Source of the DNA: Paraclostridium sordellii
GTDB lineage: Bacteria > Bacillota > Clostridia > Peptostreptococcales > Peptostreptococcaceae
Direction of reading: 5' to 3'
Assembly: GCF_000953675.1 (NCBI RefSeq)
Contig: NZ_LN679998.1
Location: 1,819,963-1,843,962 of the forward strand
DNA length: 24,000 bases
In this document: positions 12,735 through 21,627 of the stretch, piece after piece
Layout of the letters: each line of letters starts with the position of its first letter
How positions within the stretch are numbered: the stretch's first letter is position 1
Translations under genes and position numbers: made by a program
The notes under the pieces: model-generated
What the model saw: the letters and a program-made list of their open reading frames with translations, nothing else
Database searches by the model: none
What the model was told of the DNA's origin: nothing

Positions 12735-12851
12735 TCCTATATATTAATAATTTAATTCTTTATTAATAATATATAAGACAAAGTTAATACATATTACTTT
12801 TATTTAAAGTTATGATATAGACTTAATTTTCTATTAATTTATTTCTAATAA

Positions 12852-17709: not shown

Positions 17710-18534
17710 ATGAAAAATTTTGTAGATTGCTGTTTTATCTCAGATTTTAAAAATATAGATAATCTATTTTTAATAGATTGTAGGTTTGACTTATTCGATC
17801 CTGATTTAGGGTATAAATTATATCAAATTGACCATATTCCAGGTGCTTTTTATTTAGATATAAATAAAGATATTTGTGGAAAACCTTCTATACATGGTGG
17901 TACGCGTCCACTTGCTGATATCAAAATTTTATCAAATAAACTTATAAATATAGGTATAACTATGAACTCCACTATTGTAGTCTATGATGAAAAAATATAT
18001 AGTTCACCTAGACTATTTCTTCAGTTAAAATACATGGGATATAAAAATGTATATATATTAAATGGAGGATTTAATGCGTGGAAATCTAATAATCTACCAA
18101 CTACATGTGAAATTCCAAAACTTAATTATAATGGATTCTTCAAAGAAAATTTAAACGAAAGTTTAGTTTGCAATATTGAATATGTTAAAAATACCATTAA
18201 CTCTAATGAAATTGTTTTAGTTGACTCTAGAGATAACAATAGATATACTGGAGAATTTGAACCTCTATACTCAAAGCCAGGTCATATACCAGGTGCAATA
18301 AATATTCCTTGGCATAATAATATATCTGCTAATGGTTATGTAAAAAGTTTAGATGAGATTAGTAATAATTTTTTACCATTAAAGGATAAAGAAGTTATTT
18401 TATATTGTGGATCATGTATAGAAGCTTGTATAAACTATGTGTTATTAGATGAACTTGGCTATAATTCTAAGGTTTATATAGGAAGTATGAGTGATTGGAT
18501 TAGTTATAATGATAATATAGTTGAAAAACTATAA
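17710..18534 (+). CDS. Tandem-rhodanese sulfurtransferase (thiosulfate/3-mercaptopyruvate sulfurtransferase-like), 274 aa
   Basis: Two rhodanese-like halves (..IDCR....GHIPGAFYL.. and ..VDSRDNNRYTGE.....GHIPGAINIPW). Active-site loop CGSCIEA in the C-terminal domain. SD AGGAGG 7 nt upstream of the ATG. Confidence 0.8.
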   Translation: MKNFVDCCFISDFKNIDNLFLIDCRFDLFDPDLGYKLYQIDHIPGAFYLDINKDICGKPSIHGGTRPLADIKILSNKLINIGITMNSTIVVYDEKIYSSPRLFLQLKYMGYKNVYILNGGFNAWKSNNLPTTCEIPKLNYNGFFKENLNESLVCNIEYVKNTINSNEIVLVDSRDNNRYTGEFEPLYSKPGHIPGAINIPWHNNISANGYVKSLDEISNNFLPLKDKEVILYCGSCIEACINYVLLDELGYNSKVYIGSMSDWISYNDNIVEKL

Positions 18535-18607
18535 ATATTTGAGTTTAAAATATTATAGTAATATGTTAAAATATCATAGTAAATTTACAATATCAAAGGA
18601 GACAGTC

Positions 18608-19138
18608 ATGAAAAGAGAATTTTTAACTAGTGAAAAAATTTTTTTACAACCAACTAAATTTGCAGATTTATTAGTAGATAGTTCAGGATATGTTGACTTA
18701 CATGAAAAATTATCCTCTAGTGATTTAGAATATAGCGATGATAAAGTTTTTGAGGTAGCTCCAAGTGGGTTTGTAGACTTTAATCAACATCTATATGAAG
18801 ATATAAACCACATGAACTCTATAAGCTGTGGTATATATCTAGAAAGATCCCTAATAACTTTTAGAATATTCTTATGGGGATCAAGAGGCGAAGGTTTTGA
18901 AATATTTAAGCATGTCTTAAGAGGTGATGAAATAGACTCTTTAAAATCTATTGAAGATATAAAATTTTATATGCATAAACATTTAGAAGAACTTGAAGAT
19001 GGTATATTAAAAACATATAGTATGAATGCACGCCATTCATTTGAACAACTTGGAATGGGTATAGAAAGCAAAAAGCTTCCGTTACATAGCATACTTCAGT
19101 TTATGAGTATAGATAACAATTTATCTGATTTTAGGTAA
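18608..19138 (+). CDS. Hypothetical protein (176 aa), no recognisable family
   Basis: Start reassigned to ATG 18608 (SD AAAGGAGA 6 nt upstream). The track's start at 18521 overlaps the rhodanese gene and has no SD. A strong terminator follows. No motif recognised. Confidence 0.6.
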   Translation: MKREFLTSEKIFLQPTKFADLLVDSSGYVDLHEKLSSSDLEYSDDKVFEVAPSGFVDFNQHLYEDINHMNSISCGIYLERSLITFRIFLWGSRGEGFEIFKHVLRGDEIDSLKSIEDIKFYMHKHLEELEDGILKTYSMNARHSFEQLGMGIESKKLPLHSILQFMSIDNNLSDFR

Positions 19139-19171: not shown

Positions 19172-19915
19172 TTAATTATATAATATACCCATTTTTATTT
19201 TATCTTTTAAATCCTCATTTAAAGCTAATGTGAAAATCAAATCGCACTTACTATCTATTTTACTTTGTATATTTTCAAGCATTTCATTTAAAATTGATAA
19301 AACTTCTTCAATTTTACAGTAATCATTTCCTAAGCTTATAAATACTATTCCTTTTTTCTTAGTAAGTTCTTCATTAGTTTTTATTATAGACTCAAATAAT
19401 GATTCAACTAACTCATTATTATCCATAGATTTATCACTTTCAATAAATCCGTGAGCTAATCCTTTTTCTTTTGATAATATTTCTTTTAGATCCGTTAAGT
19501 CTATATTTATAGTACAATCTTCTGAAACAGATTCAACCATAAGATTTATTAACTCGCAAATTAAATCCCTATTTTCATCATTTATAACAAACTCTGCATT
19601 AAAATCAAATTCAACTTTCTTTTCATCATTGTTAACATCTAAACCTATAGATACTATTCTTCTCTCTTTTGCCATAAAGTTTACAGCTTTCACTATATCA
19701 CATGTTCTTTGTTCTTTAGAGTTATATGTTATAAATACAATTTCTATTTCATCAAGTATTTTTGCGGCATAATCCTTATCTATATCTTGATTAATTGATA
19801 TCTTTTCGGTAGATAGTATATTTTTATTATTTTTATAATTTACTATATATTCTAAACTTTTTATTCCATCATCACTTACTCCAATTACTTTTGCATATTT
19901 ATTATTAAAATCCAT
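19172..19915 (-). CDS. Compact FtsZ/tubulin-fold paralogue with degenerate nucleotide-binding loops (247 aa)
   Basis: By-eye alignment to FtsZ. AKVIGVSDDGIKSLEYI aligns with IKVIGVGGGGNNAVNRM (T1). IVFITYNSKEQRTCDIVKAVNFMAKE aligns with [26 protein letters not shown] (T4 signature lost). FVINDENRD aligns with IVIPNDRIL. INIDLTDLKEIL aligns with INLDFADVKTIM (T7). KGLAHGFIES aligns with KGSALMGIGIA. KGIVFISLGND aligns with QGVLMNITGGT. DLIFTLALNEDLKDKIKMGIL aligns with NMIFGSVINENLKDEIVVTVI. SD AAGGAG upstream of the ATG. Confidence 0.55.
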   Translation of the reverse strand: MDFNNKYAKVIGVSDDGIKSLEYIVNYKNNKNILSTEKISINQDIDKDYAAKILDEIEIVFITYNSKEQRTCDIVKAVNFMAKERRIVSIGLDVNNDEKKVEFDFNAEFVINDENRDLICELINLMVESVSEDCTINIDLTDLKEILSKEKGLAHGFIESDKSMDNNELVESLFESIIKTNEELTKKKGIVFISLGNDYCKIEEVLSILNEMLENIQSKIDSKCDLIFTLALNEDLKDKIKMGILYN

Positions 19916-20106
19916 AATATTACTCCTTAAAATTTTTAATATTTTTAGTAAAAATTCTATATATTTACTATTATTAACCTTTTATGATTTCTTAGTATTA
20001 TATTACTAAAATAACACTTCTTAGTAAAGTATTGATTTTTATAGAAAAATTTATAATATTATATAGTATAATTTACAATTGCCTACTGAATACGCTATAG
20101 ATAAAT

Positions 20107-20144
20107 AAAAAGGTCTATCAGTTAATAATTTGATAGACCTTTTT
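20107..20144 (-). terminator. Intrinsic terminator downstream of micro-ORF A
   Basis: AAAAAGGTCTATCA (20107-20120), 10-nt loop, TGATAGACCTTTTT (20131-20144). The minus strand ends TTTTTATTTAT. Confidence 0.75.
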
Positions 20145-20207
20145 AAGTATTTATATTTTCGGTGTGCAATTTTTATCCTCCTTGGATAATCAATTTAATT
20201 ATCATAA

Positions 20208-20291
20208 CTATTCAACTTCATAATCCGGTGAGTAATCATAGTCTTTTTCCATCTCATATCCAAAATACTCTAAAGTAATGTAGTTTTCCAT
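20208..20291 (-). CDS. Micro-ORF A, 27 aa: MENYITLEYFGYEMEKDYDYSPDYEVE
   Basis: ATG 20291..20289 and TAG 20210..20208. SD AGGAGG (core 20300-20304) lies 8 nt upstream. Paralogous to micro-ORF B. Below the 60-aa cutoff of the ORF track. Confidence 0.6.
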   Translation of the reverse strand: MENYITLEYFGYEMEKDYDYSPDYEVE

Positions 20292-20443
20292 ATATTTTAC
20301 CTCCTATTTTTACAAGCTATTAATTGATTTATCATATATAAGTTATATCTCATATATGTATTTTGATTTTTCATATTCTTTAAAATTCATATATTGAATT
20401 GTTTTTTTTATTTACTTCATTTTCTAAATTAAATTCAAATTTT

Positions 20444-20524
20444 TTATTCAGTTTTATAATCAGGTGTATAATCGTAAAGTAAGTCTAATTCATATTCAAA
20501 ATATACTATTTCATTATCTTTCAT
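20444..20524 (-). CDS. Micro-ORF B, 26 aa: MKDNEIVYFEYELDLLYDYTPDYKTE
   Basis: ATG 20524..20522 and TAA 20446..20444. SD GAGGAGG (20531-20537) lies 6 nt upstream. Its C-terminal 19 residues align without gaps to micro-ORF A (11/19 identical). Confidence 0.6.
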   Translation of the reverse strand: MKDNEIVYFEYELDLLYDYTPDYKTE

Positions 20525-20645
20525 AAAATCCCTCCTCTTTTTTTGCAAGTTATTTTTATGATTTTTCATTATATTTAAATTATATGCAAGATGTATAAAA
20601 AAATTTACATATCTTATTTCAAAATTTTAATTTAATTATTTAAAT

Positions 20646-20674
20646 AAAAAAGATATGAAATTTCATATCTTTTT
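20646..20674 (-). terminator. Intrinsic terminator of ldh
   Basis: Perfect palindrome AAAAAGATATGAAA/TTTCATATCTTTTT, 8 nt after the ldh stop. The minus strand continues TTTTTTATTTA. Confidence 0.8.
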
Positions 20675-20682
20675 CTTACTTT

Positions 20683-21627
20683 TTATTTTAAATTAAGTTT
20701 TTTAATATTTTCTTTCATAATATCTATAGATTTATCAAGTTTTTGTTTCTCTTTTAACTCTAATGGTAATTCTATTATATTCCTTACTCCATTTTTATTA
20801 ACTATACTAGGTACAGATATGTATACTTCTTGTTGTCCGTACTCTCCATTTAAATATGACGATACCGTTAGTATAGTATTTTCATTTTCAAGAATAGCTT
20901 TTGTTATAGCAGTAAGGCCCATACCAATTCCATAATATGTAGATTTCTTTCTTTTAATTATCTCATAAGCTAAATTTTTCACTTCTTTTTCTATTAAATC
21001 TAAATCTTTAAAAGTTATATTTTGATTATTTCTAGATACTATCTGGTAAATTGGTTGAACACCTTGCATTGCATAACTCCACGCTACAAACTGAGAATCT
21101 CCATGTTCTCCCATTACATAAGCATGAACATTTTTAGAGTTTACATCTAAAATTTCACTTAATATATATCTAAGTCTAGATGAATCTAATGTTGTCCCAG
21201 ATCCAATTACTCTGTTTGATTTATATCCAGATAACTTAAATGCTACATATGTCATTATATCCACAGGGTTCGTAGCGATTAATAAGATACCATTAAATTT
21301 AGTTTTGTTTATCTGGGAAATTATATCTTTCATTATTAGTGTGTTTTTATTTAATAAGTCTAATCTTGTCTCTCCTTCATTTTGTATAGCTCCGGCAGTT
21401 ATACATATTATAGATGCATCATCACAATTTGAATAATCTCCTGCATATATTTTCATTTTTCTATTTCCAAAATTTAATCCATGATTTAAATCCATAGCTT
21501 CTCCTATAGCTCTATCTTTATCCTTATCAATTAAAACAAGTTCTTCACAAGTTCCTTGATTCACCATAGAATAAGCATAACTCATACCAACCATGCCAGT
21601 TCCAATTATAACAACTTTATTTTTCAT
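20683..21627 (-). CDS. ldh: L-lactate dehydrogenase (314 aa)
   Basis: MKNKVVIIGTGMVGMSYAYSM (Rossmann GxGxxG). Also LIDKDKDRAIGEAMDLNHG, ITAGAIQNEGETRLDLL, IATNPVD, GSGTTLDSSRLRY and VMGEHGDSQF (catalytic His). SD GGAGGAAAA upstream. Confidence 0.92.
   Translation of the reverse strand: MKNKVVIIGTGMVGMSYAYSMVNQGTCEELVLIDKDKDRAIGEAMDLNHGLNFGNRKMKIYAGDYSNCDDASIICITAGAIQNEGETRLDLLNKNTLIMKDIISQINKTKFNGILLIATNPVDIMTYVAFKLSGYKSNRVIGSGTTLDSSRLRYILSEILDVNSKNVHAYVMGEHGDSQFVAWSYAMQGVQPIYQIVSRNNQNITFKDLDLIEKEVKNLAYEIIKRKKSTYYGIGMGLTAITKAILENENTILTVSSYLNGEYGQQEVYISVPSIVNKNGVRNIIELPLELKEKQKLDKSIDIMKENIKKLNLK

Follow-up and report, generated by a model that had tools for sequence, protein, structure and literature searches.

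Among the described systems closest to the locus analysed here are very small peptides of spore-forming bacteria, including SpoVM (26 aa), a basic amphipathic helix, CmpA (37 aa) and SscA, which is described as hydrophobic and already serves as a spore-display anchor in Bacillus. CotC is a Tyr/Asp-rich coat protein with D-Y-D-Y-type strings, and CotC/CotU, at ~66–86 aa, are Lys-rich and basic overall. Other points of comparison are MciZ, a basic 40-aa FtsZ inhibitor made in the mother cell in dependence on sigma-E; the leader peptides TnaC and MifM, whose N-terminus is free to vary; and the microviridins, with their core K-Y-P-S-D-W-E-E (pattern TxKxPSDx(E/D)(E/D)). Open reading frames (ORFs) under ~30 codons are discarded by common gene callers and, to our knowledge, the small-protein complement of Paraclostridium sordellii, a highly lethal toxigenic pathogen, and of P. 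bifermentans, an emerging one, is essentially uncharted. Spores of P. sordellii have unusual outer structures: their exosporium is balloon-like, and their tubular appendages are chemically resistant. In Bacillus subtilis, SscA is a 28-aa inner coat protein needed for the assembly of CotB, CotG and CotH (PMC13417171); together with the SpoVM of Clostridioides difficile (PMC5607322), it sets a precedent for very small coat peptides.

How does the present locus compare? Within a 24,000-nucleotide stretch of the P. sordellii genome (the window), the gap between ldh and p247, a gene for an FtsZ-like protein, measures 767 bp (19916..20682) and holds no ORF of 60 aa or more. Its minus strand carries two short ORFs, B and then A (Table 1), each preceded by a GGAGG-type ribosome-binding site (RBS), 8 nt from the ATG for A and 6 nt for B. 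The last 19 residues of the predicted peptides align without gaps, with 11/19 identical and 15/19 positive (BLASTP E 4e-7, for a single comparison), a similarity far beyond chance, and at four of the 11 identical residues the codons are synonymous but not the same (GAG/GAA, TAT/TAC, TAC/TAT, CCG/CCT). By count, the net charge is −8 for A and −6 for B, and tyrosine makes up 22% and 19% of residues, respectively. The gap, the two ORFs with their good Shine-Dalgarno (SD) sequences, the gap-free alignment, the codon differences (by codon listing) and the acidic, Tyr-rich composition had all been given in the preliminary description of this DNA, and each is borne out. Signal sequences, transmembrane segments and cysteines are absent from both peptides. 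The ~60 bp 5′ of ORF A are in turn paralogous to the ~60 bp 5′ of ORF B, which argues that the duplication copied the whole promoter–RBS–ORF cassette and not the coding part alone.

Table 1. Features of the ldh–p247 gap, in the direction of transcription of the micro-genes (positions are those of the window)
Feature	Position	Strand	Details
ldh terminator	20645..20675	−	Hairpin + T-run seen in sequence; separates ldh from the micro-operon
−35-like element GTAAAT	20603..20608	−	Consensus GT[AG][AG]A[ATG]; 16 nt upstream of the −10-like box, same spacing in 6/8 aligned lineages
−10-like box CATATAAT	20579..20586	−	GCATATA[AT]T in all Paraclostridium/Paeniclostridium lineages; GCATATCAT in Faecalimicrobium
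Second −10-like TATAAT	20568..20573	−	With TATACA (20597-20592) a sigma-A-like promoter, 10/12 matches
Box ACTTGCAA	20543..20550	−	Just 5′ of the ORF B RBS; conserved
SD of ORF B, GAGGAGG	20531..20537	−	6 nt before ATG; read from sequence
Micro-gene B	20444..20524	−	26 aa + stop, MKDNEIVYFEYELDLLYDYTPDYKTE; B-type, C-terminal end K-x-[ED]
TATGAT box upstream of ORF A	20331..20336	−	ATATGAT in 7/7 two-copy species; possible −10 of an internal promoter
Box GCTTGTAA	20310-20317	−	Paralogue of ACTTGCAA, before ORF A
SD of ORF A, AGGAGG	20300..20305	−	8 nt before ATG; read from sequence
Micro-gene A	20208..20291	−	27 aa + stop, MENYITLEYFGYEMEKDYDYSPDYEVE; A-type, C-terminal end EVE
SD of mini-ORF C, AGGAGGA	20176..20182	−	Perfect; invariant in 7/7 two-copy species
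Mini-ORF C	20143..20169	−	TTG start, 8 codons (M)HTENINT, stop TAA; pattern M[HY][TP][ET][NS][IL]NT
Intrinsic terminator of the micro-operon	20100..20145	−	16-bp stem vs 0.0 expected

The tandem recurs, in the same B-then-A order and with the same lengths of 26–27 aa, in at least seven Paeniclostridium/Paraclostridium species: besides P. sordellii, both ORFs are open in P. bifermentans, P. dentum, P. benzoelyticum, P. tenue, P. hominis and a Paraclostridium metagenome-assembled genome (MAG). Orthologues of B were found in six other species and those of A in seven other lineages plus Faecalimicrobium, and every two-copy species has kept both paralogues. A more distant relative (L009) has a single copy, and so does Faecalimicrobium, where the cassette lies in a different genomic neighbourhood, flanked by a methylmalonyl-CoA decarboxylase operon and a convergent 2′-5′ RNA ligase gene, and retains the same promoter boxes as well as the ACTTGCAA box. 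A box of this type precedes both ORFs in all species, and likewise the single copies in L009 and Faecalimicrobium. RBSs are strong and canonically spaced in nearly all species and copies; before ORF B the site is conserved in most species and weak (TAGGA) in the Paraclostridium MAG. At the syntenic sites of Romboutsia, no family member lies beside PspA and the RNA ligase, and the 42-aa ORF found there is unrelated.

Searches beyond this clade returned little else. Among 1.84 billion representative proteins there were five matches, all of them family members, and no larger protein with the A/B motif. Neither Pfam, NCBIfam nor the PDB contained a homologue of the peptides (for Pfam and NCBIfam even at E = 10), and the exact 26- and 27-aa products were absent from a 15-billion-protein collection: A is missing at its true length, and existing annotations of B all use an incorrect start. 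A word-indexed protein search with the concatenated A and B sequences found only a stop-loss variant of A. Such absence from protein databases is to be expected, since gene callers discard ORFs of this length. Scanning genomes with the strict pattern [DLN]Y[DG]Y[ST]PD[YH][EK] gave five loci; as this pattern missed Faecalimicrobium (YDYAPDY), the true distribution may be somewhat wider. In metagenomes, a looser pattern of invariant residues yielded three real loci and one chance match. None of 56 pattern matches on viral contigs was confirmed by tblastn, arguing that the family is not phage-borne. Full-text literature searches found no paper with the A/B motif strings, nor one on small tyrosine-rich spore coat proteins of Clostridium. 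The predicted peptides thus constitute a new and taxonomically narrow micro-protein family, confined to Paeniclostridium/Paraclostridium and Faecalimicrobium, all of them spore-forming clostridia.

Are these ORFs genes? The preliminary description had taken them for paralogous peptide-coding micro-ORFs under selection on the peptide, and comparison with related Clostridia strengthens this claim: frames, lengths and tandem order are kept in seven species, and substitutions are biased to third positions. Specifically, variable sites of ORF A fall on the three codon positions in the proportions 9/7/21 (4/4/15 within the last 19 codons); dN/dS is ~0.05–0.3 for ORF A where dS is not saturated, and 0.09–0.58 for the concatenated ORFs. 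The B–A spacer is barely alignable across species, while the lengths and frames of the ORFs are kept. Within the peptides, the first 7–8 residues vary and the C-terminal 19 are constrained ([YHC]F-x-YE-x4-Y-x-Y-x-PD[YH]-x-x-[ED]). B can also be read as a 41-aa product from an upstream ATG, and is annotated as such a hypothetical protein in some genomes (EPZ62674.1, WP_278308670.1); a stop codon breaks this extension in other strains, so the 26-aa start is the correct one. In some strains, stop-loss variants add two or 12 residues (P0001, P0045), and a free C-terminus may therefore not be strictly required. As judged from these substitution patterns, A and B are genuine peptide-coding genes under purifying selection.

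The two genes are predicted to form part of a three-cistron micro-operon on the minus strand that would comprise a promoter, ORF B, ORF A, mini-ORF C and a terminator. Upstream, hairpins homologous to the ldh terminator were detected at two other loci (L016, L007), and no terminator was detected between B and A. Downstream, RNAalifold supports the micro-operon terminator with 14 pairs, four of them with compensatory double changes, and the stem opens with the T of the TAA that ends ORF C. Mini-ORF C itself, which had gone unnoticed before, is conserved in seven species with a start codon alternating between TTG and GTG; its coding signal is ambiguous, variation being roughly equal at codon positions 1 and 3. 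With its own conserved promoter boxes, RBSs and covariation-supported terminator, the predicted micro-operon is an autonomous unit. A and B arose by duplication of the whole cassette, and purifying selection has retained both in Paeniclostridium/Paraclostridium. Because the cassette moves as a unit, has its own terminator and sits among unrelated neighbours in different genera, its products are likely to act in trans; the probable mode is attachment of their aromatic/acidic C-terminal segment to a partner or matrix. That A and B are real, selected peptide-coding genes with a trans-acting product is, in our estimation, very probable.

What might the peptides do? They would be free, strongly acidic and Tyr-rich, and they share with SscA, SpoVM and CmpA the ~3 kDa size class and the organization as stand-alone genes with their own promoter, which annotation has repeatedly missed. 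If small sporulation peptides are taken to be products of fewer than 40 aa from a stand-alone gene, A and B resemble them on both counts, with 27 and 26 aa and with promoter boxes, RBSs and a terminator of their own. A further likeness lies in the conserved −10 box, which resembles promoters of mother-cell sigma factors. However, there is no sequence similarity between these peptides and A or B; a net charge of −6 to −8 and ~20% Tyr set the latter apart from the hydrophobic SscA and the basic SpoVM; and whereas the known peptides are defined by sporulation-specific expression, A and B show a resemblance at the promoter only.

The GCATATA[AT]T box is invariant across the aligned Paraclostridium/Paeniclostridium lineages, and CATATAAT is, together with CATATTAT, among the −10 boxes of mother-cell sigma factors in C. 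difficile, where the −10 quoted for sigK P2 is identical to the box of the micro-operon and sigma-E promoters include GTAATA-N16-CATATAAT (Saujet et al. 2013, PMC3789822). The −35/−10 geometry of the micro-operon matches that of such sigma-E promoters. With position weight matrices (PWMs) for sigma-E, -K, -F and -G built from the promoters that Saujet et al. 2013 tabulated for C. difficile, the −10-like box scores 8–13 bits for sigma-E/K, within the range of true sites, and it is the best sigma-E or sigma-K match upstream of the first ORF in seven of eight lineages; the sigma-F/G matrices choose other, non-conserved positions. Several points weaken the assignment. Equally high sigma-E/K scores occur inside genes and upstream of ldh in this AT-rich DNA, the background probability per position is only 1e-4 to 2e-3, and the models are not specific here. 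The −35-like element is devoid of the diagnostic ATA (sigma-E) or AC (sigma-K), the −10-like box also contains a sigma-A TATAAT/TATATT, and the sigma-A-like TATACA-18-TATAAT lies 10 nt downstream, its −10 hexamer reading TATAAT, TATAGT or AATAAT within the clade and degraded to TACAAA in Faecalimicrobium. We treat the sigma-E/K assignment as a lead only, one that is not statistically secure.

The Tyr/Asp content of A and B is shared with CotC/CotU and would suit oxidative Tyr cross-linking in the coat; CotC/CotU are, however, longer and basic, and the likeness is compositional only, Pfam and NCBIfam giving no homology of A or B to any coat protein, CotC/CotU included. The spore-coat-type role put forward in the preliminary description stays compatible with the sigma-E/K-like box, with the promoter assignment insecure and CotC/CotU homology missing. 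As a working model, the conserved GT[AG][AG]A-N16-CATATA[AT]T promoter would drive the genes in the mother cell during sporulation, and the peptides would serve as small assembly or cross-linking components of the spore envelope, either coat or exosporium. Timing and envelope role we infer weakly, and the reading in full (trans-acting micro-proteins, sporulating mother cell, spore envelope) is offered tentatively, as possible rather than probable. Also weighing against it are the low-confidence structure prediction for peptide A (pLDDT 60) and the stop-loss variants. A more specific version would make A and B a lineage-specific structural or morphogenetic part of the outer spore structures of this clade, made by the mother cell and Tyr-cross-linked, with ORF C and the ACTTGCAA box providing translation-coupled control of the cassette; to this we give a very slender chance. 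If true, it would introduce a new class of ~3-kDa acidic, Tyr-rich spore-envelope blocks that has no counterpart in Bacillus or C. difficile.

Irrespective of function, A and B form a clean, comparatively validated family of micro-proteins that are too small to pass the length limit of gene callers, and we regard the finding as a solid annotation correction and a lead rather than a mechanistic discovery. Consisting of a promoter, an RBS, 27 codons and a terminator, the compact cassette is duplicated and genus-restricted, and hence easy to delete, tag or overexpress. Should the link to sporulation prove true, the family would represent a new, chemically distinctive tiny spore component and a very small natural spore-display anchor; should it prove false, the family would still be a defined target for studying the role of very acidic, Tyr-rich peptides in Gram-positive cells.

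Rather than building the envelope, A and B could be cytoplasmic regulators which, like MciZ, Sda or SpoVM-type micro-proteins, bind and modulate one particular protein, here through the aromatic/acidic C-terminal segment, the two paralogues having diverged for two sites or partners and the target being, perhaps, FtsZ or the degenerate FtsZ-like p247. A role next to the FtsZ-like protein had been raised in the preliminary description, and the neighbour indeed has an FtsZ fold (AF2 pLDDT 89.8; Foldseek matches to FtsZ at E 3e-12, TM ~0.7) and keeps the T7-loop N-x-D-x-x-D residues. Gene order is ldh, micro-operon, p247 throughout Paeniclostridium/Paraclostridium. A conserved C-terminus behind a variable N-terminus would also suit folding on a partner, as would the structure prediction for peptide A (AlphaFold pLDDT 60: a low-confidence helix, a disordered C-terminus and no confident autonomous fold, a model uninformative by itself); a further point in favour is the retention of both paralogues in every two-copy species. 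Yet adjacency inside one close clade amounts to inherited synteny and carries little information, and it is broken by insertions before p247 in P. hominis and L009. No FtsZ-like neighbour lies within 8 kb of the Faecalimicrobium copy and, conversely, p247 homologues on three contigs (L010–L012; 41% identical, relatives named Romboutsia) have no A/B-type peptide within 4 kb. MciZ is likewise a micro-protein, and the A/B genes adjoin a gene for an FtsZ fold and possibly possess a mother-cell promoter; but MciZ is basic and A/B are acidic, A and B show no sequence similarity to it or to another known regulator, and the linkage to the FtsZ family is lost outside the clade. Overall, we consider such a regulatory role rather unlikely.

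Ribosomally synthesized and post-translationally modified peptides (RiPPs) are a second alternative: A and B would be precursors carrying Tyr radical-SAM cross-links or ester/amide macrocycles, matured by an enzyme encoded elsewhere in the genome. Short peptides with a highly conserved aromatic/acidic C-terminal ‘core’, in two tandem paralogues, would fit, and Y-S-P-D-Y-E-x-E resembles the microviridin core, albeit as a resemblance only: the shared feature is a short acidic segment of aromatic-S/P-D-aromatic-E-x-E type, a loose likeness. A Pfam scan of the 19 larger ORFs in the 24-kb window revealed no ATP-grasp, radical-SAM/SPASM, YcaO, protease or ABC exporter gene, and no RiPP maturase, protease or export gene was present within 8 kb of the Faecalimicrobium copy or in loci L001–L009; in addition, the flanking genes change from one genus to another. 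The only Ser/Thr of the conserved segment, that of YDY[ST]PDY, is replaced by Ala in Faecalimicrobium (YDYAPDY) and by Ile in some P. sordellii strains (YDYIPDY), and no Lys column is conserved in the A/B alignment, so that the donor set of the microviridin type is absent. With only ~8 residues, the would-be leader is also the least conserved part, the reverse of the usual leader/core pattern, and there is neither a secretion signal nor an export gene. Unlike graspetides, A and B thus have no nearby ATP-grasp ligase, conserved Lys, fixed Ser/Thr or recognisable leader; nor do their loci show the adjacent radical-SAM/SPASM maturase and the conserved leader with variable or repeated core that mark radical-SAM RiPPs. 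The lack of a nearby maturase in every genome examined and the replaceable Ser/Thr disfavour this reading and weaken the precursor role suggested earlier; its probability we judge to be low.

Might the ORFs act in cis instead? As leader or arrest peptides, another of the roles initially suggested, they would control read-through by C-terminal stalling together with translation of ORF C over the terminator stem. The 19 conserved residues approximate the length held within the ribosomal exit tunnel, the N-terminus varies, and in all two-copy species the stop codon of a mini-ORF with its own SD falls within the terminator stem; in Faecalimicrobium, another SD with a 5-codon ORF occupies the same place beside the terminator. 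p247 follows co-directionally in most species. TnaC, with 24–27 codons (MifM is longer), shares the size, the conservation confined to the C-terminus and the terminator immediately downstream. However, the unit ends in its own terminator, and the next downstream gene runs convergently in L009, P. hominis (L013) and Faecalimicrobium (L018/L024), which leaves nothing for read-through to regulate in these three lineages. Moreover, a conserved promoter-like region seems to belong to p247 itself, RNAalifold predicts only the terminator hairpin and no alternative antiterminator on the stretch that runs from the A stop codon through the terminator, and Rfam gives no match. Two serial paralogous leaders, each with an RBS and conservation at the peptide level, would be unprecedented and set the pair apart from TnaC and MifM. 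These points make a leader function highly unlikely. A Tyr-sensing leader peptide, considered separately, was dropped, the downstream genes being convergent.

That A and B are not translated at all, their conservation reflecting a non-coding RNA, a DNA element or an antisense gene, is exceedingly improbable: all species have an uninterrupted antisense frame over both ORFs and the exact products are missing from the 15-billion-protein collection, but Rfam returned no match at the gathering threshold or even at E = 1, ORF length is preserved between diverged flanks, and third-position excess and low dN/dS in the sense frame coincide with strong RBSs at canonical spacing. An antisense gene in particular was rejected, as 21 of the 37 variable sites of A would fall on its second codon position.

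ORFs A and B, the paralogous micro-ORFs in the gap between ldh and p247 (the gene of a 247-aa FtsZ-like protein), are real, selected and autonomous peptide genes. Reading the minus strand of the region and listing every ORF of at least 20 aa returned both with exactly the coordinates and lengths of the preliminary description, in a 767-bp gap devoid of ORFs of 60 aa or more. Strong Shine-Dalgarno (SD) sequences precede them, AGGAGG for A (8 nt upstream of the ATG) and GAGGAGG for B (6 nt upstream). Their last 19 residues form a gapless alignment (identity 11/19; BLASTP E 4e-7), and the codon listing bears out four synonymous-codon differences at identical residues. Since the ~60 bp upstream of A also resemble those upstream of B, the duplication took the whole cassette of promoter, ribosome-binding site (RBS) and ORF.

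Features of the ldh-p247 region (window coordinates)
Feature	Position	Strand	Remarks
ldh	20683..21627		upstream border of gap
ACTTGCAA box	20543..20550	minus	immediately before RBS of B
ORF B	20524..20444	minus	26 aa
GCTTGTAA box	20310..20317	minus	before RBS of A; paralogous to ACTTGCAA
ORF A	20291..20208	minus	27 aa
mini-ORF C	20169..20143 (20182 with SD)	minus	(M)HTENINT, eight codons
p247	19172..19915	minus	247 aa

Does selection act on the peptides? Among eight orthologues of A, variable sites are distributed 9/7/21 over codon positions 1/2/3, and 4/4/15 within the last 19 codons; for B, the distribution is 14/10/16. The proposed peptide-level selection is upheld by Nei-Gojobori dN/dS ratios of ~0.05–0.3 for A where dS is unsaturated and of 0.09–0.58 for A and B concatenated. 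The ORFs align codon for codon; the B–A spacer and the flanks are barely alignable. F10, Y12, E13, Y18, Y20, P22 and D23 are invariant, also in members found later, and the N-terminal 7–8 residues vary. The antisense frame, open in every species, was considered as a gene and rejected: working from the sequence, third positions of A are second positions of that frame, so that 21 of the 37 variable sites would strike its most constrained position, and it is thus not coding.

Both ORFs were present in all six P. sordellii strains fetched. The ldh protein is identical across several NCBI assemblies, and the p247 protein served as the anchor for reaching other species. The syntenic gap of P. bifermentans holds both ORFs in unchanged order, and a one-genome-per-species scan run with the aligned peptides extended the set to P. 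hominis, P. dentum, P. benzoelyticum, P. tenue and a Paraclostridium MAG. All of these keep the B-then-A tandem, with 26–27 codons apiece and a clear RBS at every ORF except one. A more distant relative (L009; p247 70% identical) carries a single A-type copy immediately after ldh. Among 1.84 billion representative proteins searched exhaustively with HMMER, only five matched, every one a family member; one pointed to Faecalimicrobium ([Clostridium] dakarense), whose single copy, MNENTSLVYFGYE[DG]ELDYDYAPDYEVE, has unrelated neighbours: a methylmalonyl-CoA decarboxylase operon on one side, a convergent 2'-5' RNA ligase gene and then PspA on the other. No family member was found at the syntenic sites of Romboutsia, nor were peptides found within 4 kb of the p247 homologues of L010–L012, and a metagenome scan with the invariant-residue pattern yielded only three more real loci. 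The family is therefore real but narrow, comprising Paeniclostridium/Paraclostridium and Faecalimicrobium within reach of pattern-limited scans.

ORF A is absent from annotation altogether. In some P. sordellii annotations, B is called from a non-conserved upstream ATG as a 41-aa hypothetical protein (window 20444..20569, minus strand; EPZ62674.1, EPZ55893.1, WP_278308670.1). Other strains have a stop within this in-frame extension, so the upstream start is probably mis-called and the start of the 26-aa form is the one to retain. In a collection of 15 billion proteins, the exact 26/27-aa products were not found, and B occurs only as the 41-aa hypothetical. Two metagenomic stop-loss variants were seen, one of A with two added residues (P0001, ...EVEQL) and one of a bifermentans-type B with twelve (P0045, ...KTEWNEIKNKFVLKK); either the C-terminus permits lengthening or these copies are decaying.

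The hairpin terminator on the ldh side belongs to ldh itself. The first ORF is preceded in every lineage by GT[AG][AG]A[ATG]-N16-(G)CATATA[AT]T, in Faecalimicrobium as GGAATC-N17-GCATATCAT, with a second box (TATAAT/TATAGT/AATAAT) 10 nt further downstream. An ATATGAT box of its own and a duplicate of the TTG[CT]AA box precede ORF A, and the corresponding CATATA box is decayed. The ACTTGCAA/GCTTGTAA box, which may be an operator or RNA element, occurs in all species and with the single copies of L009 and Faecalimicrobium. A box of this type could be a -35 in Faecalimicrobium (TTGCAA-17-TATAAT) and abuts the RBS in two-copy species. No terminator was detected in the B–A interval.

Downstream of A lies a mini-ORF, C, that the preliminary description did not list. 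It combines a perfect AGGAGGA, a 6–8-nt spacer and a TTG or GTG start, alternating among species, and follows the family pattern M[HY][TP][ET][NS][IL]NT; its substitutions lack clear codon phasing. The stem of an intrinsic terminator starts with the TAA stop of C; 4 of the 14 pairs in this terminator show compensatory double changes. ORF C is present in 7/7 two-copy species, L009 has no counterpart, and Faecalimicrobium has a different, SD-led 5-codon ORF (MLVLK) at the same place beside its terminator.

Which sigma factor might read the promoter? For the mother-cell sigma factors of C. difficile, CATATAAT and CATATTAT are given as -10 boxes, and the published promoter table includes GTAATA-N16-CATATAAT (Saujet et al. 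2013, PMC3789822). With two-block PWMs made from the sigma-E, K, F and G lists of PMC3789822, which are unspecific here, the conserved box scores 8–13 bits (training medians: E 10.6, K 13.4) and is the best E or K match upstream of the first ORF in 7/8 lineages. Scores as high or higher are also reached within genes and ahead of ldh, the -35 is without diagnostic ATA or AC, and a sigma-A reading (TATACA-18-TATAAT), which matches at 10/12 positions, is equally possible. Sporulation-specific expression is therefore a lead rather than a result. High sigma-E-type matches were also seen in intergenic DNA at 12775, 15422 and 21651 (all minus), 24–62 nt upstream of a 352-aa unknown protein, a GIY-YIG protein and ldh. 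They mostly illustrate PWM unspecificity in AT-rich DNA; the match preceding the gene of the 352-aa protein (AGTAATA-16-TATATATT) may be genuine.

What is the role of these peptides? A and B constitute a bacterial micro-protein family that is new at the sequence level, and the type of object is familiar: unannotated, conserved, lineage-restricted small ORFs. Even at E = 10, neither matched anything in Pfam, NCBIfam or the PDB; Rfam gave no match either, and a literature text search for the motif returned nothing. Most plausibly, the products act in trans. Our best, tentative explanation is that they would be expressed in the mother cell and contribute to spore-envelope assembly or cross-linking, a chain that, taken whole, is possible rather than probable. 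SpoVM and the 28-aa SscA (PMC13417171) are of similar size, and CotC/CotU have a similar Tyr/Asp composition. P. sordellii spores bear a baggy exosporium and resistant tubular appendages absent in C. difficile (PMC5628289). Such structures match a lineage-specific spore component only loosely; the appendages are strain-variable, whereas the peptides were found in all strains examined.

Alternatively, though this is unlikely, the peptides could be protein-binding regulators, possibly of FtsZ or p247. The FtsZ-like label is correct given weak matches to the C-terminal half of FtsZ (TIGR00065 E 1.5e-7; PDB FtsZ E 0.002), the predicted fold (AlphaFold, 22-sequence alignment, pLDDT 89.8; top Foldseek matches FtsZ alone, E 3e-12, TM about 0.7, roughly 14% identity) and a T7-loop N-x-D-x-x-D invariant in 22 homologues. 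p247 has no Pfam match, and on inspection its glycine-rich T1 and T4 (GGGTGTG) nucleotide-binding (GTP-binding) motifs are replaced; it could cap FtsZ filaments or raise FtsZ GTPase activity, itself non-polymerising. Against regulation, the peptide–p247 linkage is clade-level synteny only, interrupted by insertions in two lineages (L009, P. hominis) and absent in Faecalimicrobium. A RiPP precursor with an unlinked maturase, as previously floated, is quite improbable: no maturase or export genes (ATP-grasp, radical-SAM, YcaO, peptidase-exporter or similar) were found near any copy, the Ser/Thr of YDY[ST]PDY is replaceable (Ala in Faecalimicrobium, Ile in some P. sordellii strains), there is no conserved Lys, and the 'leader' of 8 residues is variable. 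Cis-acting leader peptides, as suggested, or arrest peptides fare worse, as the unit stops at a terminator of its own and, in L009, P. hominis and Faecalimicrobium, a convergent gene comes next. That A and B go untranslated is hardly credible; the remaining probability falls to something else.

The named p247 homologues come from Paraclostridium and Romboutsia. Within the clade, the interval that separates p247 from the micro-operon is a variable site of insertion. P. hominis has an inserted HAD-family (Hydrolase_3) gene there (L013 8193-9020, minus), and in L009 (1896-2728, minus) the Hydrolase_3 gene appears as two adjacent fragments with an FAD-binding oxidoreductase. A 176-aa protein without a Pfam domain is always convergent to p247 (window 18521..19138, plus, as a 205-aa TTG-start version in the ORF list; L001 8491-9021, L013 10030-10560, L016 9314-9844). 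Its P. hominis and P. tenue counterparts are 78–79% identical, and it may function together with p247.
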